From positions 20,923-84,922 of the forward strand of contig CABZRA010000001.1 in the NCBI GenBank assembly GCA_902527995.1: a stretch of 64,000 bases of DNA, written 5' to 3'. The notes under the pieces were generated by a model. It had not been told where the DNA came from and searched no databases. It saw only the letters and a list, made by a program, of their open reading frames with translations. Position numbers and translations under genes: made by a program. The DNA comes from an uncultured SAR86 cluster bacterium. GTDB taxonomy: Bacteria > Pseudomonadota > Gammaproteobacteria > Magnimaribacterales > AG-339-G14. Shown one piece after another: positions 1-43,838 of this stretch (within the stretch, counting starts at the first letter, position 1; each line of letters begins with the position of its first letter).

Positions 1-2
1 CT

Positions 3-2192
3 ACTGACCCAGGTGTAATTATGGTGATTGACGGAATTGCCCAGCCTAGAATTTCAACTATGACACAAAATTTTAACGACGTTGAACGCTTAGAAATTCT
101 AAAGGGACCGCAAGGAGCACTTTATGGTACCAATGCCCTTGGTGGAATAGTTAACGTTGTTTCAAAAAAAGCAACTCAAGAGCAAATGGCAAGATTAAGT
201 ATAGGAGCAGGAACTATTGGCTTGGTTACTTCAGATTTGATGATTCAAGGAGGGGTCACTGACTCGGTCTCTGCAAGATTTAATCTTCAAAAAACTACCG
301 ACGATGGCACCATGACTGAAACAACTTATGGGAATAACAATGGGGCAGATGTTCAGGTCGCAAAATTACAATTTTACGGTGAAACCAATGCTGGCGAGTG
401 GAATGCTTCGTTATCTCATATAACTTTAATGCAGGATGCGGTAATATCTGAACCTTACTTCTTATGTAATTCTGCCAATCCTCTAGCTCATTATGTTTTA
501 ACTCCTGCAGTCCCTGGAAGCACAGATTTCTGTACATCTCTTCCTGCTGCAAATGTTGATGGAGTTCAAGGTGCCAAAAATACCGCTAATGCAATTTATG
601 CTGATTCAATTGCGGATCCTCGAGCTCAAGAGTTAACCACTGATGGTTTTAATTTTACTGAAACAATCAATTTAGGATTGAATTATCAAGTGGATTATGA
701 CGATTATTCTCTTACTGCGCTTTTTGGATACCAAAAGGCTAATTCTGGAGAATCAAGAGACTTTGATTCGTTTGTTTCAGACGTAATGATTCAAAGTCAT
801 GGAGCTGATACTGAAACTATGACTTTTGAATTAAGAGTAGATTCTGAAACAGATTCTGGAATTACTTGGTCTGCGGGTCTATATGCTATGCAAGATGAAG
901 GAACAAGAAGCGATAACTTCTCAACAGGCCCAGCTGGCTTGCCTCATGCTTTTGTTTTAGGTTCAGCAGTAGCAATGGTAAATAACGCTAACGGAACAAC
1001 ATTGAATCCATTAGCAAATCCAGCTGATATGGCATCAGTTATTGCAGGAGTTAATGCTTGTGCTCAATCCGGGACTTGTGCAGCCTATGCTACTCCTACT
1101 ACTCCAAGAGGCAATAACTTTAATGGCACTACTGATCTTGCTAACTTTAATAATGTTCTTGCAGGTGGGAGATTTGACAACATTGCTACAGTCAGTATTG
1201 ACACTGAGGTAACGGCAATTTTTGGAAGCGTTAAATTTCCTTTAGCTGATGATTTATCTTTGCTTTTAGCCGGAAGATATACCGACCATAGTAAGCCGTA
1301 CACTTATACAGGAGCAACTAATGGAATCGGTGTGATACTAATGCCAGCTCCGTTCGATACAGGCGAAATCTCTATTGAAGCAGAAGAATTTACTCCTAAG
1401 GCTACTTTAGAATATGTATTTGATGATAGCCTAGCTTGGTTCACTTATTCCAATGGTTACAAAATTGGCTCACCAAGTTTTGCGCAATGGTCTGCAGCTG
1501 TTGCTAGTGTTCCTTCAGGAGATGAAGAAATAACTATGATGGAAGCAGGTTATAAAACTACCTTTGGTAATGGCAGCCAGCTTGAGTTGATTTATTACGA
1601 TTATGATTATGATAATAAACAAAATCTACTAGTTGCTATGGGACCTACTGGACCATATGGAAAATTAGTATTCGGAGATGCATCAATTTCTGGACTCGAT
1701 TTAGCGTTTAGAACTTTACTAGGTCCAGCAACTAAATTGTCTGTCGCTTATGCTTATATTGATGGCGCATGGGATGATTTTGTTAACGACGCAACTTATG
1801 GTGCTGGTTCAAGTAATCCTAATGGAAAACAGATGGCAGGTTTACCACTACCATTTACTGCAGATAACAATCTTTCTTTGAGTTTGGAACATGTTCAATC
1901 AACAGAATTGGGTGATATTGCTTATACTGCTTCCTATGCTTACAAAGATAAATATATCTTGTTTGTAGAAGACTATCCTGGAGTAGTTGATGTTGATCCA
2001 TACTCTCTATTGAACTTTGACATGACTCTTTCAACTAACGAAGGTTATGATCTTTCGCTGTTCTGCAAGAATTGTTTAGATGAGCAGTACTACAATGTAG
2101 CTCTTATGTTACCAAGAGCTTCTGGAGGAGGAGCAAGAAACCAACTTGCACAAGGAAGACAGATCGGAGTTCAGTGGACTTCTGAATTCTAA
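3..2192 (+). CDS. TonB-dependent outer-membrane receptor (5' end cut by window edge)
   Basis: The frame is open from nt 3, with no stop before the annotated ATG at 21. Plug-domain motif LEILKGPQGALYGTNALGGIVNVVSKK. Long G/N/T/Y/D-rich barrel ending ...GVQWTSEF with a terminal aromatic residue. Confidence 0.9.
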   Translation, partial: TDPGVIMVIDGIAQPRISTMTQNFNDVERLEILKGPQGALYGTNALGGIVNVVSKKATQEQMARLSIGAGTIGLVTSDLMIQGGVTDSVSARFNLQKTTDDGTMTETTYGNNNGADVQVAKLQFYGETNAGEWNASLSHITLMQDAVISEPYFLCNSANPLAHYVLTPAVPGSTDFCTSLPAANVDGVQGAKNTANAIYADSIADPRAQELTTDGFNFTETINLGLNYQVDYDDYSLTALFGYQKANSGESRDFDSFVSDVMIQSHGADTETMTFELRVDSETDSGITWSAGLYAMQDEGTRSDNFSTGPAGLPHAFVLGSAVAMVNNANGTTLNPLANPADMASVIAGVNACAQSGTCAAYATPTTPRGNNFNGTTDLANFNNVLAGGRFDNIATVSIDTEVTAIFGSVKFPLADDLSLLLAGRYTDHSKPYTYTGATNGIGVILMPAPFDTGEISIEAEEFTPKATLEYVFDDSLAWFTYSNGYKIGSPSFAQWSAAVASVPSGDEEITMMEAGYKTTFGNGSQLELIYYDYDYDNKQNLLVAMGPTGPYGKLVFGDASISGLDLAFRTLLGPATKLSVAYAYIDGAWDDFVNDATYGAGSSNPNGKQMAGLPLPFTADNNLSLSLEHVQSTELGDIAYTASYAYKDKYILFVEDYPGVVDVDPYSLLNFDMTLSTNEGYDLSLFCKNCLDEQYYNVALMLPRASGGGARNQLAQGRQIGVQWTSEF

Positions 2193-2221
2193 GTTAGAAC
2201 TTATCATTTAAGTTTATTCAT

Positions 2222-2254
2222 AAAAAAGCGCCTGATTAGTTAGGCGCTTTTTTT
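2222..2254. terminator. Bidirectional rho-independent terminator between convergent genes
   Basis: AAAAAAGCGCCT-(8 nt loop)-AGGCGCTTTTTTT. A perfect GC-rich 6-bp stem is flanked by an A-run on the left and a T-run on the right. It sits exactly between the TBDR stop (2192) and the wHTH gene stop (2253). Confidence 0.8.
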
Positions 2255-2738
2255 ATTTTGGCTCTTGAAGCTCAGCTATTACCTCATTAATTTGTTCAAG
2301 AGAAACGCCAACTTCTTTTTCGAGGATGTCTTTGACGTGAGGCCCTAGGGAATTAACCAAAACTTCAAATAATGAAAGATGCATTGCTACCATTGAAAAA
2401 GCTTCTTCAGTTGGATGATACTCAATTACTCTTTTATCTCTGCTAGGAATTTTTTTGAAATAGCCCTGTTTAGTAGCTCTACTAATTAATCTTTCAATAC
2501 TTCTTGTATTTAAATTAGTGGTACCCACTAAATCACTCATAGTAAAAAACCCTTTGGTTACAAAATTGGAAACCATAATTAATCTGATCAGCTCGTATCG
2601 ACTGTCATTGACATAAACCTGATTCCAATCCGAAGTTTCAGCAAATTTAGCTATTACCTCGTACTTTTTTAGCTCAAAAGTTAGCATGGCTTCCGAAAGC
2701 AGTTTTAGGCTAGCAAGGTTTTTTAATTTATTTTTCAT
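2253..2738 (-). CDS. Winged-helix (MarR-like) transcriptional regulator, putative
   Basis: 161 aa. The segment MSDLVGTTNLNTRSIERLISRATKQGYFKKIPSRDKRVIEYHPTEE resembles a MarR-type HTH plus wing. It is divergent from the sulfatase operon. No family-specific motif was verified. Confidence 0.45.
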   Translation of the reverse strand: MKNKLKNLASLKLLSEAMLTFELKKYEVIAKFAETSDWNQVYVNDSRYELIRLIMVSNFVTKGFFTMSDLVGTTNLNTRSIERLISRATKQGYFKKIPSRDKRVIEYHPTEEAFSMVAMHLSLFEVLVNSLGPHVKDILEKEVGVSLEQINEVIAELQEPK

Positions 2739-2772
2739 AAAGATCGAAAAAATTAAATGTTATATCTTACTT

Positions 2773-2781
2773 TGTTAGAAT
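2773..2781 (+). promoter_or_regulatory. Possible extended -10 promoter element for the sulfatase operon
   Basis: TGtTAGAAT (TGn plus a TAnnnT hexamer) lies 44 nt upstream of the ATG at 2826. I saw no convincing -35. Confidence 0.25.
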
Positions 2782-2825
2782 AGCACTTCCTGGGGAGGAT
2801 TTCTTAAGCCAATTACTGCAGATAA

Positions 2826-4385
2826 ATGAAATTTTTTTTTCTTTTAATAATCGCTCTTGTATCAAGTTGCTTAAAAGCAAACGAGAAGCCCAATATAATA
2901 ATTATTTTAACTGACGATCTTGGCTGGGGAGACGTCTCTTATCATGGAGGTTATATTCCAACCCCAAACATCGATCAATTGGCCCAAGATGGAATGGAAA
3001 TGAATAGGTTCTATGCCAATCCAGTCTGCAGTCCTACCAGGGCATCATTATTGACTGGGCTTCACATTTTTAACCATGGGGTTGTGCGACCCTTTATGAA
3101 TCCTGCAGCCGAACAAACGGGTATGCCACCAGAATTAAAAATTATGCCGCAGTACCTTAAAGAGGCAGGTTATCAAACTGCCTTGTCTGGAAAGTGGCAT
3201 CTTGGAATGGCTAATGAGAAATTTTTACCAACCAATAGAGGTTTTGAAACAAGTTATGGACATTTGACAGGTGGTATAGGCTATTTTGATCATACAGCAG
3301 CCGGTCGATTAGATTGGCATAGAAATGAAAAATCATTAGTCGAGGAAGGTTATTCAACTGAGTTAATTGCTAATGAAGCTATAAATATCATTGAAAATAA
3401 AGATAACAATAGACCTTTATTTTTATATATTGCTTTCAATGCACCGCATACACCGATACAAGCTCCAAATAAAAATATTGAATCTTTTTCCTATTTAGAA
3501 GATAAAAAAGATAGGGTATACGCTGCAAATGTAAATGCCTTAGATCACGAAATAGGGAGGATAATTAAAGCTATAGAAAATAAAGGGATACTAAAAGAGA
3601 CAATTATTATTTTCTTTAGCGATAACGGTCCGGTTTTCGATGTAGATCCAATAGTCAAAGTCATTGCTCCTAATTTAGTTAATGCCAGAGGAAGTACGGC
3701 TGGATTGAGAGGTAGTAAAGTTTCAGCTCTCGAAGGAGGAATAAGAGTTCCTGCAGTAATTTGGTGGAAAGGAAAAATAGAAAACTCAAAATCTGAACAA
3801 TTCTTTTTTGTGCAAGATTTATTACCAACTCTTTTAACCGCGGTAGATATAGAAGTAGATAATGCTAAATTTGACGGTAGAGATAAATGGAAGAATTTAA
3901 TAACGAACGAAATTACCCCACCAATTAATGCTTTAGTTGGGGCAAGAGTTATTTCAGACGAAAGGGCTTTGTTTGATGGGGAATGGAAGCTATATTCAGC
4001 AAAACCTCAATTAATTCCAGTGTCACCATCATATAGTTTATTCAACATTATTGAAGATCCCTTTGAAACTAATGATTTATCTGAAAACGAACCCGAGATC
4101 TTTGAAAGCATGAAAAAAATTCTTACTTCATTACCAGAAAAAGATGTTGTGGGTGATATGAACCCAGCTCATTCTTATCTTCACGGCGATGATAGGCAGG
4201 GAGGCACTGAATTAGGCTCTCCTTGGTTAGAAGGCGATTACGAATTAAACCCTCCACCTTCAATATTTTTATCAATTCTAATTACGATTTGGATTTTAAT
4301 CTTAGCTTTTAAAGAGTATTTATTGGCTCTTCTAGTAATTATTTTAACACCAGTCATATTTTTTAAATTCATAAGAAAATCATGA
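2826..4385 (+). CDS. Cys-type sulfatase (arylsulfatase B / S1-family-like) with C-terminal hydrophobic anchor
   Basis: IIIILTDDLGWGD metal-binding start. Formylglycine signature CSPTRASLLTG. Also SGKWHLG, FNAPHTP and FFSDNGP. The N-terminal signal peptide has a lipobox-like LVSSC. The C-terminus has two ~17-aa hydrophobic segments: SIFLSILITIWILILAF-KE-YLLALLVIILTPVIFF. Confidence 0.9.
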   Translation: MKFFFLLIIALVSSCLKANEKPNIIIILTDDLGWGDVSYHGGYIPTPNIDQLAQDGMEMNRFYANPVCSPTRASLLTGLHIFNHGVVRPFMNPAAEQTGMPPELKIMPQYLKEAGYQTALSGKWHLGMANEKFLPTNRGFETSYGHLTGGIGYFDHTAAGRLDWHRNEKSLVEEGYSTELIANEAINIIENKDNNRPLFLYIAFNAPHTPIQAPNKNIESFSYLEDKKDRVYAANVNALDHEIGRIIKAIENKGILKETIIIFFSDNGPVFDVDPIVKVIAPNLVNARGSTAGLRGSKVSALEGGIRVPAVIWWKGKIENSKSEQFFFVQDLLPTLLTAVDIEVDNAKFDGRDKWKNLITNEITPPINALVGARVISDERALFDGEWKLYSAKPQLIPVSPSYSLFNIIEDPFETNDLSENEPEIFESMKKILTSLPEKDVVGDMNPAHSYLHGDDRQGGTELGSPWLEGDYELNPPPSIFLSILITIWILILAFKEYLLALLVIILTPVIFFKFIRKS

Positions 4386-5023
4386 AATTACCTTTATGGC
4401 TGAGATGGACTATTTTTGGAGTTATAGTTTTTACTTCTCTTATCTTACCCTTAATACTTTTTGAGAGTCCGCTTTCAAAATATGGAGAAATTGCATTGAA
4501 TTGGGCAGGGGATAACGAGTTGTTAGTGTCTTTAGTCGTAATAGTTGCCCTTACAGCTGATGTAATTTTGCCGGTTCCTAATGGGCTGACTAATACCTTA
4601 GCTGGAGTTTCTCTGGGCTGGGCGATAGCGTCTTTAGTAGTTTGGGTGGGTCTTAATTTAGGAGCTTGTGTAGGTTATTTCCTAGGTCGTTTTGCTGCGA
4701 GGCCATTGGCTCAAAAAATGATTAGTGAAAGTGACTTTAGTGAGGCTGAAAAATCCCTTCAAAATTTCAGTACCATAGGATTGATTCTTTCTAGACCAGT
4801 TCCAGCTTTTGCAGAATTGATAACAATAAGCGCAGGTCTAGCAAGAATGTCTTTTATTAAATTTATCCTAGTAGTTGGAATTGTAAATATTGGAGTTGCA
4901 GTTGTATTTTCAGGTATTGGCGCTGCAGCTATGGAAGCTAATTCTTCAACTCTAGCATTTATCGGAGTTGCTGTATTACCAGCCTTATTCTATTGGGCTT
5001 ATATCAAGTTTTATAAAAAATAA
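4382..5023 (+). CDS. VTT-domain / DedA (TVP38/TMEM64-type) integral membrane protein
   Basis: 213 aa and polytopic. LPVPNGLTNTLAGVSLGW...GACVGYFLGRFAARPL resembles the SNARE-associated/VTT core. Its start overlaps the sulfatase stop as ATGA. Confidence 0.7.
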   Translation: MKLPLWLRWTIFGVIVFTSLILPLILFESPLSKYGEIALNWAGDNELLVSLVVIVALTADVILPVPNGLTNTLAGVSLGWAIASLVVWVGLNLGACVGYFLGRFAARPLAQKMISESDFSEAEKSLQNFSTIGLILSRPVPAFAELITISAGLARMSFIKFILVVGIVNIGVAVVFSGIGAAAMEANSSTLAFIGVAVLPALFYWAYIKFYKK

Positions 5024-5030
5024 CTTTAAC

Positions 5031-7517
5031 TTAAAAAGACTGTTGGTAAGTTAATTTCCATTCTTCACCAGGTGCATAGTAAGTAGTTTGGATACTTGCT
5101 AGAACGGGATCTCCAAATTGAGCATAACCATAAAGTTCATCAGTTATATTTTTTCCAACTAAGGTTAAAGTCTGTGAATCGGAAATCTGCAAACTTGAAG
5201 TAAAGTCTAAAGTGGAATAATTATGAAGCTGTGAATAATCATATAATTCCGTAGTCGTAAAATCGTCTCCAACGTGTGTCCAACTCAATGAAGAAGAAAT
5301 CGTTTTAGAATTTAAAGAAAAAACATTTAGTAATGTAATGTTGGTTCTTGACTCAGGACCTTCAGCATCGTAAGCAAATCCGGTTAAATCGTTTCCATTA
5401 TCGTCTACAAACTCTATATATTTACCCCCGTAAGCCCCTCTTGAAGCAAGAACTGAAAAGTAGTCATTGATAAAAGCTTTAATTTCAATTTCGTACCCAT
5501 CAACTTCTGCTTTTTGGATAGGCACGGTAGCAATTGATGCAGCGCCACTATTCGGATCTATCCTAGCGACACTTCTTTGATTGTTGATGTAGTCAAACAA
5601 AAAGATATTTGCATTGACTTGTAATTTGCCATCCAAATAAGTTCCTTTCGTTCCAATTTCATAGTTGTCTGCGGTCTCAGCAGGAAAAGCAGAGACTCTG
5701 TCATCGTTGTTAAACCCACCAGAGGCAAATCCTTTTGCATAGGAAGCATAAAGAAGAGAGCCGTTAGGCAAAGTATAATCTAACGCAAATCTAAACGAGT
5801 CATTTTCAAATTCTTCAGTACCTATACAGTAAGCATCTTTTTGAAAGGTTCCAAATGGACCAAAGCTAATTGACGTTCCCGCGTTAAAGGTTTGAGCACA
5901 AGTTCCTGCAGCGGGAGATCTTAAACCTCCAAAACCGTTACTTAAACCAGGAATAATAGCATCAGAATAAGTTTTAACCATTTTATCTTCACTTGTAAAT
6001 CTGTAACCAAAGGTAACGTTTGTTTCAGTATTAATCGCATAAGTTCCTTCAAAAAAGAATGCATCAGACTTATTTTCTGCAAAAGTAGTTTGTTGGGAGC
6101 TAAGAGCCTGCAAGCTTTGAACAGTAGAACACAATTGAGCTACAGTAAGACTTGTTCCTGGGTTATCACAATCGTTTCCAATTGCAGCAAAAGTAGCCGC
6201 GTGAGTTTCATTAGCTCTTGCATTTACCGTAGCTTGAGTCTCGAGTGTAGTTACTCCGTCAAAATACATTGTATTTAGTTGGTTAATTCCCGATTCATCA
6301 AAAGTATAAGCACCGACAACAAAATCAAGTCTTCCGTTTAGTGCTTCACCAGACCACCTTAGTTCTATTTGGTTAGAGGTTGCATCGTTAACAATGTCTC
6401 TAGGATCTAAATAAGACGCCGAAGTTCCTGCCAGAGGACCAACAAATCTATTTCCATTTACACTAATACCAAGGCTACCATTAAGGGATTCTAAGTCAGA
6501 ATGATTAAAAATTAATTTTAATTCTCCAAAATTTGATTTGTAAGTAGTGTCTATAGTAGTTCTTTTTAAATCATCGTCTACACGAGGACTTGTTATTGAT
6601 GTTCCACTTACACCGGGAACACTAGCATTACAATTTCCTATTATGGCTAAAGCAAGTCCAGGGTCAGCAACAAAAGCTGCTCCCATAAAAGCTGAACTAA
6701 TTATACCTATCTGCCCTGTACCGTTTAAAGGATGGGATATCACCTCGCACGCGCCAAGAACTCTACTTCCATCTCTGTTGTAATTTACGTGCGAGAATAA
6801 AATATCTATATCATTTGAGAGTTTATAAATACCTGAAAGCCTAATAGTTTCGGCATCAATTGCTCCTGAGAATTCGTTACGGGTAGTGTTATATATATAA
6901 CCGTCTTGTTTTTCTTGACTGTAAGAGAATCTAAGGGCGGTGATATCTGAAATTGGAAGATTAGCCATTAAAGCTAATTCGTTCCTAGAATCTGTTCCTG
7001 CACCAACCCTTACTTTATAGTTTTGGGAATCAAAATTAGGCTTATTATAAAAAAAGGAAACCGCCCCAACGGTTGAGTTCTTTCCAAACAAGGTACCTTG
7101 CGGCCCCTTTAAAACTTCAACTCTTTCTAAATCCCAAAGATCTAGAAAGTTGCCTTGTGTTCTAGGAATATAAGCCCCATCAATATAAGTTGCAGCTTGT
7201 GACTCAGACGTAACAGAGATTCCACTACCACCAACGCCTCTTATAGTTACAGCAGCAGTCCCATAAGCTCCATTTTTGACAACCTGCAGATTTGGAGAAA
7301 TACGATCAAGATCCTCGTAAGTAAAGATTCCGATTTCCTCAATAGTTTCACCTGAAAATGCTGATATAGAGATTGGTACGGATTGAGAGTTTTCCTCTCT
7401 TTTTCTTGATGTCACAATAAGCTCTTCAGCGATGCTACTGAAAGAATTTGCTTCTATTTGAGTGTATCCAGCTACAGGATACAAAATCGTAAATAGTAAA
7501 ATTAATCTTAAATTCAT
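5031..7517 (-). CDS. TonB-dependent outer-membrane receptor
   Basis: Signal peptide MNLRLILLFTILYPVAGYTQ. TonB-box-like EELIVTSRKRE. Plug motif LERVEVLKGPQGTLFGKNSTVGAVSF. C-terminal ...KLTYQQSF. I prefer the ATG at 7517 (preceded by GGGGAGAGAA) to the TTG at 7529 used in the track. Confidence 0.93.
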   Translation of the reverse strand: MNLRLILLFTILYPVAGYTQIEANSFSSIAEELIVTSRKREENSQSVPISISAFSGETIEEIGIFTYEDLDRISPNLQVVKNGAYGTAAVTIRGVGGSGISVTSESQAATYIDGAYIPRTQGNFLDLWDLERVEVLKGPQGTLFGKNSTVGAVSFFYNKPNFDSQNYKVRVGAGTDSRNELALMANLPISDITALRFSYSQEKQDGYIYNTTRNEFSGAIDAETIRLSGIYKLSNDIDILFSHVNYNRDGSRVLGACEVISHPLNGTGQIGIISSAFMGAAFVADPGLALAIIGNCNASVPGVSGTSITSPRVDDDLKRTTIDTTYKSNFGELKLIFNHSDLESLNGSLGISVNGNRFVGPLAGTSASYLDPRDIVNDATSNQIELRWSGEALNGRLDFVVGAYTFDESGINQLNTMYFDGVTTLETQATVNARANETHAATFAAIGNDCDNPGTSLTVAQLCSTVQSLQALSSQQTTFAENKSDAFFFEGTYAINTETNVTFGYRFTSEDKMVKTYSDAIIPGLSNGFGGLRSPAAGTCAQTFNAGTSISFGPFGTFQKDAYCIGTEEFENDSFRFALDYTLPNGSLLYASYAKGFASGGFNNDDRVSAFPAETADNYEIGTKGTYLDGKLQVNANIFLFDYINNQRSVARIDPNSGAASIATVPIQKAEVDGYEIEIKAFINDYFSVLASRGAYGGKYIEFVDDNGNDLTGFAYDAEGPESRTNITLLNVFSLNSKTISSSLSWTHVGDDFTTTELYDYSQLHNYSTLDFTSSLQISDSQTLTLVGKNITDELYGYAQFGDPVLASIQTTYYAPGEEWKLTYQQSF

Positions 7518-7580
7518 TTCTCTCCCCAAGACAGAATTAATAATAATGCAATTTCTTTTGTTAGCAACAACTAAATAAGT

Positions 7581-8636
7581 TTAAAAAGCTTTTTGATAAC
7601 CAAGGATAATTTTTTCTTTACTATCCATTTGTAATCCATTTTTATTTTGATTTATTGGAAATAATATCTCAATAGCTAGTCTGTCTGAGTGATCGCTTTC
7701 GAATAAATTAAATACAGTATTAAATCCAATTCCTATTGAAGAAGAGCTACCTCCATAATTGTAAGGGTTTGCTGTTTGCACAGGGCCTGTAATATCTGAA
7801 TCACTACCTTCGATGCTTTCTTCTTTTACAAAGTTGTATCTGAGAGACCATGAAAGACTATTATTAAAAAACTTTTGAAACCAAATAGAGGTTTCATATT
7901 CATTTCCAAATGCCCAATTTTTTTCATTTGCATTTAAAGAAGACTGAATTTGAAAGCCAAGTGAATTGGTAAAAAAATACTTTTTGTGAGTATAGCCAAT
8001 ACTTAATTTGGTTGATTTATCTGAACCTTGCATTCCATAAGGCACAATCATTTCCATTTGTGAATTCATAGGAGTTAAAACGACGTCGGTCTTATTGTTA
8101 TCTCCTATTGCTTGAATGAACCCGATTTTAAAAATTGAATTTTCCGAATCGTTATCCACTATATTAATCAATCCAAATAAAGAAACTTGAGAAAGGGCTT
8201 TAGAAGAAAGATTAAAAGATCCTAATAAATTTCTATTCATCATTCCTTGGTAAGTATTAGAAATCATTTCTAAATCTTTAAACATCATCATGCCCATTAA
8301 TGTAAATTTGTCTGAAGCAGCAAACATTCCACCAAACATATACATCCTCATATCCATTTCCTGAGGCACTATGCTTAAATTAGAAGGCGCATTCTGCATG
8401 CCAGCATTTGGATTAGGGAGAGTAAGAATCTGGCTATCTGTTATGGAGCTTCCTTCAAGTAAGTTTCCTTTCATTTTCATATGGGAAATTCTAAGAGAAA
8501 CCATTATTTCTCCTTTCTTATGTGCGTGATCACCCATTACTCCTATTGGCGCATGAGAAATAGGGGTATCGTCTGTTAAAGAAAGGGGAGCAAAAAAGAA
8601 AAGAAATGGGATAAGAAATTTCACGGGCGAGTGCAT
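7581..8636 (-). CDS. Met/His-rich outer-membrane beta-barrel protein, family uncertain
   Basis: I start at the ATG at 8636, which gives the signal peptide MHSPVKFLIPFLFFFAPLSL. N-terminal HAPIGVMGDHAHKKGEIMVSLRISHMKMKG. Met clusters MDMRMYMFGGMF and LMGMMMF. Alternating beta-strand pattern ending ...ILGYQKAF. Confidence 0.6.
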   Translation of the reverse strand: MHSPVKFLIPFLFFFAPLSLTDDTPISHAPIGVMGDHAHKKGEIMVSLRISHMKMKGNLLEGSSITDSQILTLPNPNAGMQNAPSNLSIVPQEMDMRMYMFGGMFAASDKFTLMGMMMFKDLEMISNTYQGMMNRNLLGSFNLSSKALSQVSLFGLINIVDNDSENSIFKIGFIQAIGDNNKTDVVLTPMNSQMEMIVPYGMQGSDKSTKLSIGYTHKKYFFTNSLGFQIQSSLNANEKNWAFGNEYETSIWFQKFFNNSLSWSLRYNFVKEESIEGSDSDITGPVQTANPYNYGGSSSSIGIGFNTVFNLFESDHSDRLAIEILFPINQNKNGLQMDSKEKIILGYQKAF

Positions 8637-8669: not shown

Positions 8670-9404
8670 ATGATTGACCTTTATTATGCTCCCACACCAA
8701 ATGGTTGGAAAATTTCCATCATGCTTGAAGAATGTGGGCTTGATTACAACGTTATTTTGGTAAATCTGGGCAAAGGTGATCAATTCACTCCAGAGTTTTT
8801 AGAGATTAGCCCAAATAACCGAATGCCCGTCATTGTTGATCACGACAGAGTAATTGATAAAAAGCCCATTAGTATTTTTGAGTCAGGAGCAATTCTGATG
8901 TACCTCGCAGAAAAGACTGGAAAGTTTTTTCCTCAAACTTCTCCAGAGAAGGAAAGAGTTATGGAATGGTTGTTTTGGCAAGTAGGCGGTCTAGGCCCCA
9001 TGGCTGGCCAAGTCAGTCATTTCGTTAATTACGCACCCAATTTTCCTGGCGATCATTCATATTCTGAAAAAAGATATAAAGATGAATATGATCGTTTACT
9101 AGGAGTAATGGACAGAGTGTTAGATGAAAGAGATTATCTTGCTGGAGATTACTCTATCGCTGATATGGCATCTTTTCCTTGGGTTACAGCATATAAAAGA
9201 TATGAAGTAGATCTTGATTTGTTTTCAAATGTTCGAAGATGGTTTGACGATATTAAATCCAGACCCGCAGTAAGAAAAGGTATCGAAGTAGGTAAAGAAG
9301 TTAGAAATTTTGGCAAAGGTATTTCGAAAGAAAGTTTGAAAACAATGTTTGGACAAGATGCTAAAAGCATTGTAGAGATGGCTAAAGCTAAAGAGAAAAA
9401 ATAG
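8670..9404 (+). CDS. yfcG: Nu-class glutathione S-transferase / disulfide reductase (YfcG-like)
   Basis: MIDLYYAPTPNGWKISIMLEECGLDYNVILVNLGKGDQFTPEFLEISPNNRMPVIVDH is near-colinear with E. coli YfcG as I recall it. I use the ATG at 8670 rather than the GTG at 8631. Confidence 0.85.
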   Translation: MIDLYYAPTPNGWKISIMLEECGLDYNVILVNLGKGDQFTPEFLEISPNNRMPVIVDHDRVIDKKPISIFESGAILMYLAEKTGKFFPQTSPEKERVMEWLFWQVGGLGPMAGQVSHFVNYAPNFPGDHSYSEKRYKDEYDRLLGVMDRVLDERDYLAGDYSIADMASFPWVTAYKRYEVDLDLFSNVRRWFDDIKSRPAVRKGIEVGKEVRNFGKGISKESLKTMFGQDAKSIVEMAKAKEKK

Positions 9405-12433: not shown

Positions 12434-14428
12434 ATGGTGACTGAGAAACTTAAATGGGGTTTGATAGCAAACGGTGCTATCGCGAATGCTTTCGCCAACT
12501 CTATTAAGAATTCTGAAACTTCAGAGCTCAAATCGGTATTTGGACGAAGTAAATCTAAAGTAGAAGCCTTTGCTAAAAAACATAAAATAATTCCTTTCAA
12601 TGATCTCGATAATTTTTTAGACAGCGATTTAGAAGCTGTGTATGTCGCAACTCCTCATGATTCGCATTTCAATTATTCCCTTAAATGCATTCGTCAAAAT
12701 CTACACGTTTTGTGTGAAAAACCTTTAACCATAAATTCTTCTGAATCAATGATTTTGATAAATGAAGCACAAAAGAGAAATGTTTTTCTGATGGAGGCAT
12801 TTATGTACAGATGTCACCCTCAAACATTTAAGGTTTTAGAATTAATTGAGAAACATTTTTTAAATAAGGAAGTAAAAATGCAAAGTTCCTTTGGTTTCTC
12901 AGCAAACGTATCAAAAGAACATAGGCTGAGAAATCTTTGTCTAGCAGGCGGGGCAATTCTCGATGTTGGTTGTTATCCTCTTTCGATGGTGCGATTAATA
13001 TCTGGTAGGTTAAAGAATTTACCTTTTGCAGATCCTTTAGAAATAGTTGTGGAGGGAGAGTTAGATGAAACAGGAGTGGACGCTAAGTCTACGGCGACAG
13101 TAAATTTTTCTGATGGCATTTCTGCCGAAATTAAAACCGCTATTCAAGAAGAGTATAAAAACAATCTTATTGTGGAAGCAGATAATTTAAGACTAGAAAT
13201 CTCCGATCCTTGGCACTGCGGTCAATTTAATAATGGAAAGTCTTTAATTAAGCTTTCAAATAATGGAAAAGACGAATTTTTTGAAATTACAGACGAAGTT
13301 GGTTTGTTTACAAGAGAAATAGATGAAGCTGCTAATTGCATTAAAGAAAATAAATTTGAGTCTCCCTTGATGTCGCATAAAGATACCTTAGGAAATATTT
13401 TATGGTTGGAAAAATGGTATTCAAAACTTGGAATAAAATTCCCCAATAATGAAATCAAGAATTCGGCTATCAAAGATTTAGACTTTAATTTGAACTCAAA
13501 CAAGCATCACAAATTATTTTCTATTTCAGGAAAGTTAGCTCCGAGAATTGTTTTTGGATGTGATAATCAAATATCAGAACTGCATGCATTTTGTATGTTT
13601 GAGCATTTTTATCAGCAGGGCGGGAGAATATTTGATACGGCATATATTTACAATAATGGTCTTTCCGACGGATACCTTGGTGCATGGATAAACGAACGTG
13701 ATTTAAAGGATGAAGTAATAATTTTAGGAAAGGGAGTACACACACCTGATTGTGAGCCAGAAAATATAAAACCACAATTAGAAGAATCTCTTAATCGCAT
13801 GAATTTAGATAGGTTGGATATATATTGTTTACATAGAGACAATCCTGACATCCCAGTTGAAGAGTTCATCGATGAATTGAATAAGTTGCAATCATCTGGT
13901 CTTTTTACATTATTCGGAGCTTCTAATTGGACTTTGGAAAGATTTAGGAAAGCTAACGAGTATGCCGCTAAAAATAATAAGGAAGGATTTAAAGTATTAA
14001 GTAACAACTTCAGTTTAGCAAAAATGAACAAACCAGTTTGGCCTGGATGTGTGAGTTGTGATGAAAAGTATTTAGATTATTTAGTGTCAAATAACATCTA
14101 CTTATTTCCCTGGTCTAGCCAAGCCAGAGGTTTTTTTGTTCAACAAGAATTATTCCCAAAATTTATTCACGGAGCAAATCCAACTTTAGAGGAAGAAACT
14201 AGAGTATGGCATAGTAAAGATAATTTAGATCGAAGAAAAAGATGTTTCGAGTTGTCTGAGAAGCTGAATTGTTCCCCTGTAGAGTTAGCTTTGGCATATG
14301 TTATTAATCGAAATGAATATATATTTCCCTTGATAGGCCCAAGAAATTTGTTTGAATCTGAAAGTTGTATGAAAGCTTTAAGAATTAATCTTAATCAAGA
14401 GCAAATACATTTTCTTATGGAAGGGTAA
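12434..14428 (+). CDS. Two-domain oxidoreductase: N-terminal Gfo/Idh/MocA dehydrogenase fused to C-terminal aldo-keto reductase
   Basis: N-terminal half: KWGLIANGAIANAF Rossmann start, VYVATPHDSH and the LCEKPL motif. C-terminal half (from ~aa 370): GGRIFDTAYIYNNG (Asp/Tyr), ILGKG (Lys), DIYCLHRDN (His) and FGASNW. It is a single uninterrupted 664-aa ORF. Confidence 0.85.
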   Translation: MVTEKLKWGLIANGAIANAFANSIKNSETSELKSVFGRSKSKVEAFAKKHKIIPFNDLDNFLDSDLEAVYVATPHDSHFNYSLKCIRQNLHVLCEKPLTINSSESMILINEAQKRNVFLMEAFMYRCHPQTFKVLELIEKHFLNKEVKMQSSFGFSANVSKEHRLRNLCLAGGAILDVGCYPLSMVRLISGRLKNLPFADPLEIVVEGELDETGVDAKSTATVNFSDGISAEIKTAIQEEYKNNLIVEADNLRLEISDPWHCGQFNNGKSLIKLSNNGKDEFFEITDEVGLFTREIDEAANCIKENKFESPLMSHKDTLGNILWLEKWYSKLGIKFPNNEIKNSAIKDLDFNLNSNKHHKLFSISGKLAPRIVFGCDNQISELHAFCMFEHFYQQGGRIFDTAYIYNNGLSDGYLGAWINERDLKDEVIILGKGVHTPDCEPENIKPQLEESLNRMNLDRLDIYCLHRDNPDIPVEEFIDELNKLQSSGLFTLFGASNWTLERFRKANEYAAKNNKEGFKVLSNNFSLAKMNKPVWPGCVSCDEKYLDYLVSNNIYLFPWSSQARGFFVQQELFPKFIHGANPTLEEETRVWHSKDNLDRRKRCFELSEKLNCSPVELALAYVINRNEYIFPLIGPRNLFESESCMKALRINLNQEQIHFLMEG

Positions 14429-14432
14429 ATTT

Positions 14433-16856
14433 TTACCAAGAAATTTTATCTTTTAATAGAATTTTGTCTGAAGAGGAACCAATCAATATTTCGTGATCTC
14501 CTTTTTTTATTTTCCAGCTTTTTGAAGAGACGTCCCAATAAGAAAAATTTCTTTTATTAAGTTTTAATTTAATACGCTTAGTTTGTCCTTTCTTTAATTT
14601 GATTTTCTTGAAATTTTGCAAGGTCTTAATGGGTTCCTCTTCATCTGTTATTGGACTGCCTATATAACATTGAATAATCTCCTTTCCGTCAAATTTACCA
14701 ATATTTGAAACTTCAAAACTATATAAAATCTTTCCAGCCTCATTTTCAACTTTTAAATTTTTATACTCATAATTAGTGTAAGAAAGACCATGACCAAATG
14801 GGAATAACGGTTTAATTTCTTTTTTTTCATACCATCGGTGCCCGATTAATAATTTCTCTTCATAATTCATTTGAGAATTTTCACCGGGATAAGATGAAAA
14901 AGCTGGGGTGTCTTCAATTTTATTAGGAAAGGAAGTGGGCAGTTTCCCGGAAGGATTTGTTTTTCCAAATATGATATCCATTAAAGCGTTTCCATATTCT
15001 TGACCGCCAAACCATGATTGGATTATAGCTCTAGGTTTCTCAGACCAAGACATACTCACTGGAGCTCCGGTGTTTAAAACCACAACACAATTAGAATTAA
15101 TATCGGTAATTTGGTTAATTAGCTCATCCTGATTACATGGCAATTCAAGATTTTTTCTATCATTACCTTCAGTTTCCCAATCGGAATTAGTTCCTGCAAC
15201 TACAATTAAGATATCTGCTGACTCAGCTAATTTTTTTGCTTCATCTAATAAATTCAATTTATCAGGTGGTAGGCAGCCAAATTGAACTGCAGGAAATCTA
15301 CCCTCAAAGGAGTAAACTATCTCAATTAGATACTTTTTGTTTTTTTCTAAGGTTTGCTTAGTTTTTTTAGGTTCGCTACCAAAAGAAAAGAAAGCTTCTC
15401 CAGGCATAATGTCGTTTGCATTATCAATTATTTCCTCACCATCAATTTTCATAAAACATGGTCCAATTCCAAATACTTCGAATTCATGGATACCTTGTAC
15501 GTCCGGGACATATTCACATGAAAACCTTACTTTTATATTGGGTCTTTCTTCTCGATTGATAATATCTTTTGCAAAACCGTCAAAAACCCAGAATTTATTA
15601 CCTTTGAGTATTTCTGTCTTGAGAAGGTTTGATTGTTTTATATCGCTGTCAAAATATTCAACCTTAAATCCTTTGGGATCAATAAATAAAGATTCATCAA
15701 ACTTTGGGAGGTATTTATGAGTATGAGCACCTTTCGCATACGAAATATTTTTATCTTTTACGTGCTCTTTTAATGCTTCGAGGGGATGAACTTGATAGTG
15801 AGGTTTTAGGCTTGCACTTCCACCTCCAATGATTTGACTTACTTTTGCATTAGGACCTATAACAGCGATTGTTTTATTTTCATAACTTGTTAAGGGCAAA
15901 AAGTTTTCATTTTTTAACAACACCATGCCTTCGCTAGCACATTTTCTCAATAGCTTTCTATGAGGCTTTCTGTTGCTTTCTTTTTCGGGTCTATTCTCTG
16001 GAGCCTGAATTCTTCCAGTAAATTCCATTGTTGCTAAGATCCTTCTAACTTTGTCATCAATTAGTTCTTGGGATACCTTATTTTTTTCAACAGCTTCTTT
16101 TAGCTTTTCTCCCCATGTGTGTCCTGGGCCAGGCATTTCCATGTCTAAACCACCCTTTGCATTTTCAACAGTTTCTAAAGCAGCTCCCCAATCACTTACA
16201 ACATATCCATCAAAACCCCATTCTTTTTTTAAGATATTTGTTAACAATTCTTGATGAGAACTACAGTAAATATTATTTAGTTTGTTATATGCTGACATTA
16301 CAGACTTAGCTTTGGCTTTTTTAACACCCATTTCAAATGGTAAAAGATATACTTCTCTTAACGTTCTTTCATCTAAGTTAGAACTTACTGTGTGTCTTTC
16401 AAATTCTGTATCATTGGCAACAAAGTGTTTAAGGCAAGCTGAAACTTTTTTTGATTGAACGCCTTTGACATAAGACACAGCTATTTTTCCAGCTAAGATT
16501 GGATCCTCAGAAAAATTCTCAAAATGCCTTCCTCCCAAAGGATGTCTATGAAGATTTATAGTCGGCCCAAGAAGAACGTCTACATCTTTATCTAAAGCTT
16601 CTTCGCCTAACGCAGTTCCAATTTTTTTAATTAATTTTTTATTCCATGTAGATCCCATCGAGATAGGACAAGGGAAGCAGGCGGAGCTTTTACCAGATGT
16701 AGAATCACCTCTCACACCATTGGGTCCGTCAGACATTTTTATGCTTGGGATCCTAAGCCTTGGTATTTTGTTGGAATACCATGAATTGAAACCAGTTAAC
16801 AGGGAAATTTTTTCCTCCAAGCTGAGTTTTTCTATTAATGTATTTACATCAAGCAT
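14433..16856 (-). CDS. GH3 beta-glucosidase with inserted PA14 domain
   Basis: SDGPNGVR and the GFDGYVVSDWGA nucleophile motif. A PA14-like insertion runs FKVEYFDSD...VRFSCEYVPDVQGIHEFEVFGIGPCFMKIDGEEIID...YLIEIVYSFEG. A fibronectin-like C-terminus follows. There is no signal peptide. Confidence 0.9.
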   Translation of the reverse strand: MLDVNTLIEKLSLEEKISLLTGFNSWYSNKIPRLRIPSIKMSDGPNGVRGDSTSGKSSACFPCPISMGSTWNKKLIKKIGTALGEEALDKDVDVLLGPTINLHRHPLGGRHFENFSEDPILAGKIAVSYVKGVQSKKVSACLKHFVANDTEFERHTVSSNLDERTLREVYLLPFEMGVKKAKAKSVMSAYNKLNNIYCSSHQELLTNILKKEWGFDGYVVSDWGAALETVENAKGGLDMEMPGPGHTWGEKLKEAVEKNKVSQELIDDKVRRILATMEFTGRIQAPENRPEKESNRKPHRKLLRKCASEGMVLLKNENFLPLTSYENKTIAVIGPNAKVSQIIGGGSASLKPHYQVHPLEALKEHVKDKNISYAKGAHTHKYLPKFDESLFIDPKGFKVEYFDSDIKQSNLLKTEILKGNKFWVFDGFAKDIINREERPNIKVRFSCEYVPDVQGIHEFEVFGIGPCFMKIDGEEIIDNANDIMPGEAFFSFGSEPKKTKQTLEKNKKYLIEIVYSFEGRFPAVQFGCLPPDKLNLLDEAKKLAESADILIVVAGTNSDWETEGNDRKNLELPCNQDELINQITDINSNCVVVLNTGAPVSMSWSEKPRAIIQSWFGGQEYGNALMDIIFGKTNPSGKLPTSFPNKIEDTPAFSSYPGENSQMNYEEKLLIGHRWYEKKEIKPLFPFGHGLSYTNYEYKNLKVENEAGKILYSFEVSNIGKFDGKEIIQCYIGSPITDEEEPIKTLQNFKKIKLKKGQTKRIKLKLNKRNFSYWDVSSKSWKIKKGDHEILIGSSSDKILLKDKISW

Positions 16857-41803: not shown

Positions 41804-42273
41804 AAATATCAATTAGTTTAGGAAGTAATATTGATCCTAAAAAAAATCTTATTGAAGCGAACGCATTAATCAAAAGGAAATTTAGTTTTTTAAATTCTTC
41901 AAATATTTACTCTAGTAAATCTGCTGGATTCGTAGGAAATGATTTTCTCAATCAAGTTACTGTTTGTTCAACAAATCTCAAATTTGAAAAAGTGATTACC
42001 ACATTAAAAACAATAGAATCATCCATGGGGAGAAAAAAAGAAAAAGAGAAATTTTCTGACAGATTGATAGATTTAGATCTTTTGACATATGGCAACGAAA
42101 TTATTGATAATTTTGGAAAAGAAGTACCTCACAAAGATATAGAAAAGTATTCATTTGTTTTAGTTCCTTTAGCAGAAGTCTTACCTAATAACATTCACCC
42201 AAAACTAGGAATGACTTTTACAGAATTATTAAAAACTAAAAATTTTGATTCTGAAGTTACAAAAATCTATTAA
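41788..42273 (+). CDS. folK: 2-amino-4-hydroxy-6-hydroxymethyldihydropteridine pyrophosphokinase
   Basis: ISLGSNI, the RLIDLDLL motif and PHKDIEKYSFVLVPLAEV. Confidence 0.88.
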   Translation: MSKNIEISISLGSNIDPKKNLIEANALIKRKFSFLNSSNIYSSKSAGFVGNDFLNQVTVCSTNLKFEKVITTLKTIESSMGRKKEKEKFSDRLIDLDLLTYGNEIIDNFGKEVPHKDIEKYSFVLVPLAEVLPNNIHPKLGMTFTELLKTKNFDSEVTKIY

Positions 42274-43838
42274 ATTTCTTCGCCAAGACTCCTAGCTTTG
42301 CTAAGTAAGTTATCTTCTTCTTGCTTTAGGTTAATGCAAGCAATAGATATAAAAATTACAGGAATAATTAAAACAATTAGAACAAGAGCCATTGACAGTC
42401 TTAAGCCGTCTCCACTCGTCATACCCTGGTTAAAAAATACGTCACTCAATTGGCCCACAGTGTAGGGCCCTAAAGCAAGTCCTATCATACTTAAAGTTAG
42501 AATGAAAAATGCAGCAGCCATTCCTCTCATCCTAGGTAAAACTAAGTCTGTGACTGTTGAAGCTGCACATCCTAAATATGATGCACTAACTAAGTGATAT
42601 AAAAAATTCCAAACAAGCGAGAGATTTGTATTTGACGTATAGATAAAACCTAAACAAGTAATTGCAGTTAAAAAACATGCAGCAATAATTAAGTAGAGCT
42701 TAGCATTTACATATTTGACTCTTAATTTATCTCCTAGGTAACCACCGCCAACAACTCCTAAAAAGGAGCCCACAATTGTAAGAATTCCTATAAGCAATCC
42801 AATTTCAGATGCTTCCATACCGTGATTTCTGATGTAGAAAGCTGGTTGAAATGCTGTATAGCCATAACTCACAAAAGGAAGAAAAGGAACTGAAATTAAA
42901 GAAAATAATAAAGCCTTATTTTTAAACATTATCTCAAAAGCAACTCTGTCTCTAGTTTTAAGAGTTTGGATCCAAGAAAAAACTAAGTAAGCTCCAACCC
43001 CCCAAGCCGTCCATTGAAGAAAATCTTCAGTAAATTTATATAAATAAAAGCAACTAAGAAAAAGTATAAAACCCATAATAAAATTGAATAACAATTTATT
43101 GAGCAAGTTCTTTGAACCTATAAGCGATAAAGGCGTAAGACCTAAAAATTCTTTAAAAGTATCAAAAAAAGGAGAACTACTAGGTTTTGTTTCAATTCCT
43201 TCACTCAAGCCTCTCTTCGGTTCTCTTATAAATGCATATGTAATAACTGCTAACACAATTCCTGGAAAGCCAACGGCCATAAACGCAACTTGCCACCCTT
43301 TAAGACCAAAAGGAGCAAGCGTTGCATCTGGATACCAACCATTCCACGTATCCAAAATCGATCCCCCTAAAAAAAGTCCTATTCCTGCACCGATGTATAG
43401 TCCGCTGGAATAAATAGCTAAAACTGTAGCCCTCACTTTGGGTGAAAAATAATCGGACAATAAAGAATAAGCAGCAGGGGAGGCGGTAGATTCGCCAATT
43501 CCTACTCCAAATCTATAGATTGATAGAGCAAAAAAAGATTTTGCTAAACCTGAAAGAAACGTCATCAAGCTCCAAAATGCTAATCCAATACTTATTAGAT
43601 TTTTTCTATTCCATGTATCGGCAAGTTTTCCCATTGGAATTCCTACTACTGAATAAAAAACACCAAAAGCCGTGCCGAAAAGAAAACCAATGTCACTATC
43701 AGAAATACCCAGATCGGCTTTAATGTCCTCTGCAAGAATGGTGAGAATTTGCCTATCAATAAAATTAAATATGTAAACTACAACCAAAAGACAAAGTGCT
43801 ACTTTTGCGTTGAATCCTCCAACTTTATTCTTATCCAT
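42270..43838 (-). CDS. MFS transporter (Spinster-like)
   Basis: ~12 or more TM segments. The MFS signature GKLADTWNRKNLI sits between TM2 and TM3. Confidence 0.8.
   Translation of the reverse strand: MDKNKVGGFNAKVALCLLVVVYIFNFIDRQILTILAEDIKADLGISDSDIGFLFGTAFGVFYSVVGIPMGKLADTWNRKNLISIGLAFWSLMTFLSGLAKSFFALSIYRFGVGIGESTASPAAYSLLSDYFSPKVRATVLAIYSSGLYIGAGIGLFLGGSILDTWNGWYPDATLAPFGLKGWQVAFMAVGFPGIVLAVITYAFIREPKRGLSEGIETKPSSSPFFDTFKEFLGLTPLSLIGSKNLLNKLLFNFIMGFILFLSCFYLYKFTEDFLQWTAWGVGAYLVFSWIQTLKTRDRVAFEIMFKNKALLFSLISVPFLPFVSYGYTAFQPAFYIRNHGMEASEIGLLIGILTIVGSFLGVVGGGYLGDKLRVKYVNAKLYLIIAACFLTAITCLGFIYTSNTNLSLVWNFLYHLVSASYLGCAASTVTDLVLPRMRGMAAAFFILTLSMIGLALGPYTVGQLSDVFFNQGMTSGDGLRLSMALVLIVLIIPVIFISIACINLKQEEDNLLSKARSLGEEI

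Follow-up and report, generated by a model that had tools for sequence, protein, structure and literature searches.

The DNA stretch analyzed in this study (the window) is a 64,000-nucleotide part of contig CABZRA010000001.1 from an uncultured SAR86 cluster bacterium, and our subject is the group of six genes in its first 8.6 kb, which surrounds a gene encoding an S1 formylglycine-type sulfatase. The first gene encodes a TonB-dependent receptor (TBDR1, positions 3-2192, plus strand) and is followed by the gene of a small winged-helix protein (REG, 2253-2738, minus strand). The sulfatase gene (2826-4385, plus strand) begins on the other side of an 87-bp divergent intergenic region (2739-2825), and the gene of a DedA/VTT-domain inner-membrane protein (4382-5023, plus strand) comes directly after it. 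The last two genes encode a second TonB-dependent receptor (TBDR2, 5031-7529, minus strand) and a Met/His-rich outer-membrane barrel protein (OMP, 7581-8633, minus strand). The initial annotation regarded these six genes as one uptake-and-desulfation unit resembling a polysaccharide utilization locus (PUL). Its gene calls were right, also for the divergently oriented regulator and for the sulfatase and DedA genes, which are co-transcribed, and all the features that it listed were present where it had placed them. The near-identical contigs and the named relatives all belonged to SAR86 (Magnimaribacterales), in agreement with the origin of the DNA. The G+C content of the window is 36-40%, and its coding share is 96%.

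The sulfatase consists of 519 amino acids and was matched by PF00884 over the whole profile (positions 1-301 of 301), with an E-value of 8.1e-60 and 203 bits against a cut-off of 25 bits. The signature C68-S-P-T-R72 (CxPxR) was invariant in 15 orthologs, and so were D30, D31, K123, H125, H208, D266, N267 and K298, which we presume, from what is known of AtsA and ARSA, to fill the metal-binding and catalytic roles. Judging from these residues, the protein appears to be a catalytically competent S1 enzyme. The nearest solved structures were ARSB (1fsu, 2.8e-59), 6bia, S1_19 carrageenan sulfatases and AtsA of P. aeruginosa. Genes encoding FGE, anSME or a sulfatase paralog were sought across the 61 genes of the window, and none was found.

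The sulfatase has a hydrophobic N-terminus (residues 1-19) and a hydrophobic C-terminus of 46 residues (474-519) with basic residues at its end. The initial annotation had read a lipobox in the N-terminus; this candidate was rejected, as the N-terminal Cys is not conserved in the orthologs, which points to a cleaved signal peptide. The C-terminal hydrophobic tail was present in all SAR86 homologs (54-98% identity, about 517-525 amino acids) and absent from the closest non-SAR86 homologs, whose identity is 43% or less. From these features, we infer that the enzyme is periplasmic and tethered to the inner membrane. Human steryl-sulfatase sits in the membrane by means of hydrophobic helices, and its substrate is a lipophilic sulfate ester. 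It is an S1 homolog of the SAR86 sulfatase (1p49 and 8eg3, E-values of 7e-29 and 2e-30) but is more distant than ARSB and the S1_19 enzymes, and its anchor is an internal helical hairpin, whereas the SAR86 anchor is a C-terminal tail.

A genome scan with the sulfatase alignment as the query, using one genome per GTDB species, returned at least 18 SAR86 loci with full-length, tail-bearing sulfatase orthologs (54-79% identity); an exact look-up with the window sulfatase gave no match. The neighborhood was defined as 10 kb around the sulfatase gene, and the counts given below refer to the 18 SAR86 species representatives among the matches listed. The window-type gene order TBDR1/REG/sulfatase-DedA/TBDR2 (type A; the other SAR86 sulfatase contexts are called type B) was found only in three close lineages. 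The first is the window's own (loci L081, L090, L091 and L099; 92-100% identity), the second is about 80% identical (L082 and L092-L095), and the third, L103, is about 76% identical. In the neighbor-joining tree of the sulfatases, the first and second lineages formed one subclade nested within the SAR86 sulfatases, with L001, L004 and L083 as its sisters. L103 is not in the tree; its gene order, together with an identity of 69-77% over the five genes, places it in type A. The arrangement of the window is a single derived state.

Orthologs of REG, OMP and TBDR2 were each found near the sulfatase in none of the 18 listed representatives, and a DedA gene was found in only one of them (L010), where it was not adjacent. 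Co-occurrence in divergent genomes beyond shared ancestry, by which a conserved multi-gene system is recognized, was not observed. The PUL-like six-gene unit was therefore largely refuted by this co-conservation test, which had been set in advance, the arrangement being confined to one subclade. What is new in the window is a tail-anchored sulfatase peculiar to SAR86, in an arrangement that is lineage-specific, and this novelty is modest.

The genes beyond OMP, encoding a glutathione S-transferase (GST), a DsbA-like protein, a CoA-transferase and a prolyl aminopeptidase (PIP), are also syntenic between the first and second lineages wherever this flank is visible. As the flanks are also syntenic, the conservation of the block adds little beyond shared ancestry. 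On the other side, beyond TBDR1, a DUF1330/Fe-ADH/SDR/NMO cluster is present in the second lineage, and the first lineage shows the DUF1330 gene only (L091). Overlapping genes are usual in this genome, as 21 of the 41 co-directional neighbor pairs in the window overlap. The syntenic housekeeping flanks, the dense coding and the overlap of half of the co-directional neighbors agree with a pure juxtaposition, in which no neighbor, both TonB receptors and REG included, works with the sulfatase, and kinship and tight packing keep the block together. It is also reported that the TBDRs of SAR86 are disproportionately many (PMC3358033), so that a receptor nearby is expected by chance.

The conserved neighborhood of the sulfatase in SAR86 was a different one. 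At least one of an MhpA-like hydroxylase gene, an FAH-family hydrolase gene and a VOC-family dioxygenase-like gene was near the sulfatase in 12 of the 18 listed representatives. The MhpA-like FAD hydroxylase matched NF004829 with 443 bits (cut-off 390 bits), and the VOC-family neighbors were of the two-domain extradiol type or of the single-domain type. Their recurring companions were GST-like genes, TetR, a RutE-like malonic semialdehyde reductase, methylmalonate-semialdehyde dehydrogenase (MMSDH) and, in some loci, a TBDR. The spacing was often operon-like: TetR and the sulfatase overlap by 1 nt in L104, and L001 has gaps of 0-40 nt. The pattern was clear in L104-L107, which carry an abundant sulfatase (P0107, 68% identical) in the order aldehyde dehydrogenase (minus strand), hydroxylase, TetR, sulfatase, nitroreductase-family protein (minus strand), VOC protein (minus strand), GST (minus strand), TBDR and FAH. 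The sister lineages of the type-A subclade, L001, L004 and L083, also have the aromatic-cluster context, and the sulfatase of L083 is 81% identical to that of the window. The clusters extend over L104:6233-17842, L001:8144-14542 and L083:8150-14555, and others lie in L105-L107, L016 and L017. Genes of this cluster were sought elsewhere in the 64 kb, and none was found.

The combination of GST and FAH hydrolase is reminiscent of the gentisate and homogentisate routes, with their pair of maleyl isomerase and fumaryl hydrolase. From its gene content, the cluster looks like a candidate aryl-sulfate catabolic locus, of which no description was found in the accessible text of the literature. Since the sulfatase travels with the hydroxylase, dioxygenase, GST and FAH genes across SAR86, aromatic sulfate esters are favored as its substrate. 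The sulfated lipid guessed in the initial annotation was based on the anchor, DedA and the barrel fold, and the SAR86 neighborhoods point away from it. The literature records sulfated phenolics from seagrasses and green macroalgae.

In L104-L107, L016 and L017, TetR, the sulfatase and a TBDR occur in one cluster, which shows that the link of receptor, regulator and sulfatase recurs in SAR86. The coupling of these three functions, as originally proposed, was thus retained in a general form, with other partners than the six genes of the window. A receptor and a TetR gene inside the sulfatase cluster of other SAR86 argue against a pure juxtaposition, and we regard that explanation as rather doubtful.

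Taken together, the data suggest that the stretch is an ordinary, lineage-specific part of a SAR86 genome that is streamlined, and that it encodes an anchored sulfatase for aromatic sulfate esters and no dedicated six-gene system; we give this reading a probability of about 0.5. An aromatic (phenolic) sulfate ester would cross the outer membrane, probably via a TBDR1-type receptor, and the sulfatase, with its signal peptide cleaved and its tail in the inner membrane, would strip the sulfate in the periplasm. Next, the resulting phenol would enter the cytoplasm, where hydroxylation and ring cleavage would follow. In the sublineage of the window, the ancestral aromatic neighbors no longer lie beside the sulfatase; DedA is co-transcribed with it, and the divergent REG may regulate it. 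DedA, TBDR2 and the Met-rich barrel would be neighbors by genome compaction and shared descent rather than as partners of the sulfatase.

According to the accessible text of two studies, SAR86 has neither sulfate uptake nor assimilatory sulfate reduction (PMC3358033, PMC11582366). As SAR86 cannot assimilate sulfate, the benefit of desulfation would be carbon, not sulfur. The opposite explanation is that the sulfatase frees sulfate as a sulfur supply, comparable to Pseudomonas AtsA under sulfate starvation, and it is reported that AtsA of P. aeruginosa is strongly induced by sulfur starvation (PMC12581299). In one SAR86 lineage (L002:7741-11557 and L003:1114-4930), genes resembling cysteine synthase and cystathionine gamma-lyase directly precede the sulfatase gene, which is in favor of sulfur scavenging and is odd in a group that does not assimilate sulfate. 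The released sulfate would, however, be unusable for SAR86, and no sulfur-assimilation genes were present in the window, so that we consider sulfur scavenging very improbable.

TBDR1 showed only a partial match to the Plug domain (PF07715). The match begins at profile position 61, with only the last third of the domain present, which indicates that the gene runs off the 5' end of the window; the translation ends with ...WTSEF, and the full-length ortholog in L091 has 828 amino acids. Both receptors have a Plug domain, which is full in TBDR2 (1.3e-16), and a C-terminal Phe. The TBDR1 orthologs and the L103 ortholog of TBDR2 carry a recorded PF00593 match, and the window's own proteins did not match this family at E<=0.01. 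The sister lineages L001, L004 and L083 have receptors of the TBDR1 subfamily at a distance of 2-5 kb upstream of the sulfatase. Their identity to TBDR1 is 37-46%, compared with about 23-25% for other, unrelated SAR86 TBDRs. The presence of this subfamily upstream of the sulfatase in both type-A and sister type-B lineages also weighs against a pure juxtaposition. Within type A, the identity of TBDR1 falls to 46% in the second lineage (L092:10531-13029) and 69% in the third (L103:181-2652), where its neighbors keep 72-88%; this divergence means that the receptor either evolved faster or was replaced while its position stayed the same. In the window's lineage, TBDR1 is adjoined by a small DUF1330 gene (L091:1065-1379), and a DUF1330 gene is found directly 5' of the sulfatase in the type-B loci L009, L011, L015 and L018. 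It may be what is left of a common ancestral locus.

A bidirectional intrinsic terminator (2222-2253) lies between the convergent TBDR1 and REG genes. It has a 14-bp stem with 5 G-C pairs, an A-run on its left and a T-run on its right. The initial annotation had described a textbook terminator at this place, and the present analysis confirmed it as the strongest terminator-like site in the 64 kb; the other stem of at least 10 pairs with a T-run is intragenic. In L082, L092 and L093 of the lineage that is about 80% identical, the hairpin is conserved although its stem has another sequence, and it folds with -21 to -25 kcal/mol. Convergent genes in the window have gaps down to 3-7 bp or overlap and are free of terminators, as seen for DedA and TBDR2 at 5023/5031.

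REG is an orphan protein of 161 amino acids with a predicted winged-helix, MarR-like fold and is presumed to be a transcription regulator. It had no Pfam or NCBIfam match above threshold, and no MarR Pfam family appeared even at E<=10; the only matches were sub-threshold ones to Penicillinase_R and HTH_36. The AlphaFold2 (AF2) model, with a pLDDT of 84, showed a helix-turn-helix and a two-strand wing with flanking helices at the N- and C-termini. Almost all of its Foldseek matches were MarR, Rot or MecI proteins, and these were weak, with E-values of 2e-3 to 2e-2 and TM-scores of 0.33-0.42 (probability mostly >0.95). The family is tiny, comprising 14 clusters among 5.8e9 proteins, and an exhaustive profile search gave 17 matches among 1.84e9 representatives, most of them fragments. 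The profile search for distant relatives of REG gave only sub-threshold winged-helix matches and no bridge to the MarR Pfam families. The most distant relative (47% identity, L098) is flanked by a different TBDR and a DUF1330/hydrolase/ADH/SDR/NMO cluster, and no sulfatase is visible on that contig, which agrees with REG being an unrelated neighbor of the sulfatase.

In the divergent intergenic region, TGtTAGAAT at 2773-2781 on the sulfatase strand forms an extended -10-like element. The alignment of seven loci from two lineages showed that TGnTAGAATArCA and a GGGAG block are conserved, and no palindrome that could be a conserved operator appeared in it between the REG and sulfatase genes, a result which also fits juxtaposition. 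The GGGGAGG/GGGAGA block (2786-2810), about 30 nt upstream of the sulfatase start and common to the lineages, is too far away for a normal ribosome-binding site and may be a leader element. A small repressor-like protein encoded divergently across a short gap is a classic regulatory layout, and the 87-bp spacing in the window speaks against juxtaposition in this respect. By this layout, REG plausibly regulates the divergent sulfatase-DedA operon. It is similar to MarR repressors that are divergent from their own operons in its predicted fold and in the divergent layout, but it differs from them in the absent MarR Pfam match, the very small family and the absent operator palindrome.

OMP starts at the ATG at 8633, not at the TTG at 8783. 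Its gene and that of TBDR2 share a strand, with OMP 51 bp upstream, and a gene encoding a YghU/YfcG-like GST begins 36 bp past it on the other strand. The family consists of marine 'hypothetical' proteins. OMP had no Pfam match at E<=10, including PF13557, and the profile of its 27-member family found no PDB sequence at E<=10. The AF2 model (pLDDT 86) showed 12 long strands and a conserved segment (residues 24-42) before strand 1. Foldseek placed OMP closest to FapF (4.5e-13) and the COG4313 channel Pput2725 (4rl8, 6.9e-12), and the TM-score against 4rl8 was 0.58 when normalized to the query and 0.74 when normalized to the target. The OMP model shares the 12-stranded barrel with FapF and the COG4313 channels (Pput2725, TcpY, SphA), and the segment before strand 1 with Pput2725; OMP differs from them in that its sequence shows no similarity to Pfam and PDB entries.

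The OMP family has 14 invariant Met residues together with H27, H36 and H38. A Met ladder (M93/95/97/99/103) lies on one strand face, the N-terminal motif HAPIGVMGDHxHKKGE is invariant, and some members carry an extra Met/His-rich insert. We know of no described counterpart of this ladder and motif. The residue pattern suggests either binding of a soft metal (copper) or a hydrophobic slide; PcoB-type structures were absent among the top 50 fold matches.

The OMP gene has been deleted more than once. L090, which has 97-99% DNA identity to the window, lacks window positions 7656-8589 (L090:6492-6660). An independent deletion of about 7664-8423 was found in L092 and L094 (L092:4861-5163), and the gene is intact in their close relatives L093 and L095. 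L103 has no OMP (L103:7959-8065), and a Rieske-oxygenase-like gene is in its place. These deletions and the absence in L103 indicate that OMP is dispensable, and the polymorphism of its presence and absence might reflect phage or toxin pressure. Relatives of OMP with 46-51% identity occur in a different context, consisting of TBDR, GST, a 226-aa protein, beta-carbonic anhydrase, OMP and DUF2939. In these other SAR86, the OMP-family gene comes after the beta-carbonic anhydrase gene.

The DedA protein has several hydrophobic segments and was matched by PF09335 (62.1 bits, cut-off 33.9 bits); it is not UptA by the equivalog model (NF052604, 39.1 bits against a cut-off of 250 bits). Its start overlaps the stop of the sulfatase gene by 4 nt in the window. 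The convergent TBDR2 gene follows after a gap of 7 bp, and TBDR2 shows 72-98% identity across the three type-A lineages. A metagenome scan with DedA gave just two near-identical loci, so that the neighborhood test from the DedA side is weak.

Several points weigh against the reading of an ordinary stretch with an aromatic sulfate ester as the substrate. The five-gene core is kept in the three lineages with 72-88% identity, though the gene beyond TBDR2 differs in L103, and this persistence could reflect selection for the block. The overlap of the sulfatase and DedA genes (1-4 nt) is kept in all three lineages (L081, L082, L092, L103). In one distant genome, L010, the DedA gene (61% identity) is 3.5 kb from the sulfatase on the opposite strand with five genes between them, and by our estimate such proximity is unlikely to arise by chance in any single genome. 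In addition, the 18 SAR86 and 62 non-SAR86 sulfatase loci are the matches listed, and further loci are possible. A lipophilic substrate would suit the membrane anchor and also OMP, with its fold of a hydrophobic channel, and COG4313 channels have been linked to the import of hydrophobic molecules, for instance trichlorophenol and sphingosine (PMC4493636). In the accessible text of their paper, Freel et al. 2024 suggested sulfolipids and sulfoglycolipids as substrates of SAR86 arylsulfatases (PMC11582366). A 161-aa open reading frame beside the DedA gene of L010 was considered as a REG homolog and rejected, since BLASTP showed no similarity.

The initial annotation supposed that the six genes form one uptake-desulfation system, whose substrate would be amphipathic and sulfated (a sulfolipid, a sterol sulfate or a sulfoglycolipid), and the persisting core, the gene overlap, the DedA gene of L010, the anchor, the OMP fold and the published suggestion of sulfolipids speak for it. 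The TonB receptors and the hydrophobic channel would import the substrate, the sulfatase, whose C-terminal anchor is conserved across SAR86, would desulfate it at the membrane, DedA would flip or move the lipid, and REG would control the genes. Co-conservation, however, fails outside one subclade, OMP is dispensable within populations, and the OMP relatives and the most distant REG relative lie in other neighborhoods. No DedA-like gene was found within 10 kb of the sulfatase in any of the 62 listed non-SAR86 loci, even by tblastn at E<=1. Moreover, the overlap of sulfatase and DedA genes is of a kind usual in this genome, and elsewhere the sulfatase is embedded among genes for aromatic-ring catabolism. 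We therefore regard such a system as unlikely. A narrower proposal is that the sulfatase-DedA pair, TBDR1, TBDR2 and REG came together recently as a module that handles sterol sulfates or sulfated membrane lipids, in which the sulfatase acts at the inner membrane and DedA presents or flips the substrate or removes the product. We consider this quite improbable; if true, a DedA protein would for the first time be linked with a catabolic enzyme.

No described system with the composition of the window turned up in the literature searches, as the initial annotation had expected. PULs of Bacteroidota with SusC/SusD and sulfatases are similar in that a TonB receptor, a sulfatase and a regulator are close together. 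The window differs from them, as it has no SusD, no adjacent carbohydrate-active enzymes in 1-8.6 kb and no conserved set of neighbors, and its receptors are not of the SusC type (TIGR04056, 24.9 bits against a cut-off of 368 bits). Among the sulfate-ester loci of Pseudomonas are atsA and, in P. putida S-313, the TonB receptor SftP and the regulator SftR for aryl and alkyl sulfate esters. These loci serve sulfur scavenging under CysB/SftR and include ABC transporters. The likeness to SAR86 is a proteobacterial arylsulfatase linked to a TonB receptor and a regulator; SAR86 differs in having no sulfate assimilation, an orphan winged-helix protein as the presumed regulator and a membrane-anchored sulfatase.

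Freel et al. 2024 reported arylsulfatases (aslA/arsB) in all Magnimaribacterales families, predicted to be periplasmic, amid many TBDRs and aromatic-degradation genes (PMC11582366, accessible text). Most likely they belong to the same gene family as the present sulfatase. The accessible text of that paper describes no C-terminal anchor, no neighborhood of hydroxylase, FAH, dioxygenase and GST genes, and no lineage-specific pairing with DedA (PMC11582366).

SAR86 is among the most abundant bacteria of the surface ocean, and its diet is still inferred mostly from genomes. If the neighborhood evidence is right, a universal anchored sulfatase of SAR86 would feed aromatic ring cleavage, not the use of lipids or polysaccharides, and sulfated phenolics would then be an overlooked carbon source. 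In a genome with such a coding share, adjacency and overlaps are weak evidence of shared function. We suggest that catalogues of new systems should leave out the six-gene 'locus' and that the aromatic-cluster context is the better lead.

The rest of the 64 kb contains mostly housekeeping genes, such as his, trp and pur genes, ntrBC, recG, spoT, lptD and surA. The initial annotation had noted the lack of glycoside hydrolases and of a permease, which is true for 1-8.6 kb and does not extend to the whole window, as an MFS transporter is encoded at 42270-43838 and a GH3 glycosidase bearing a PA14 insert at 14433-16856. The GH3 gene is convergent with a gene encoding a 664-aa fusion of a GFO/IDH/MocA oxidoreductase and an aldo-keto reductase (12434-14428).

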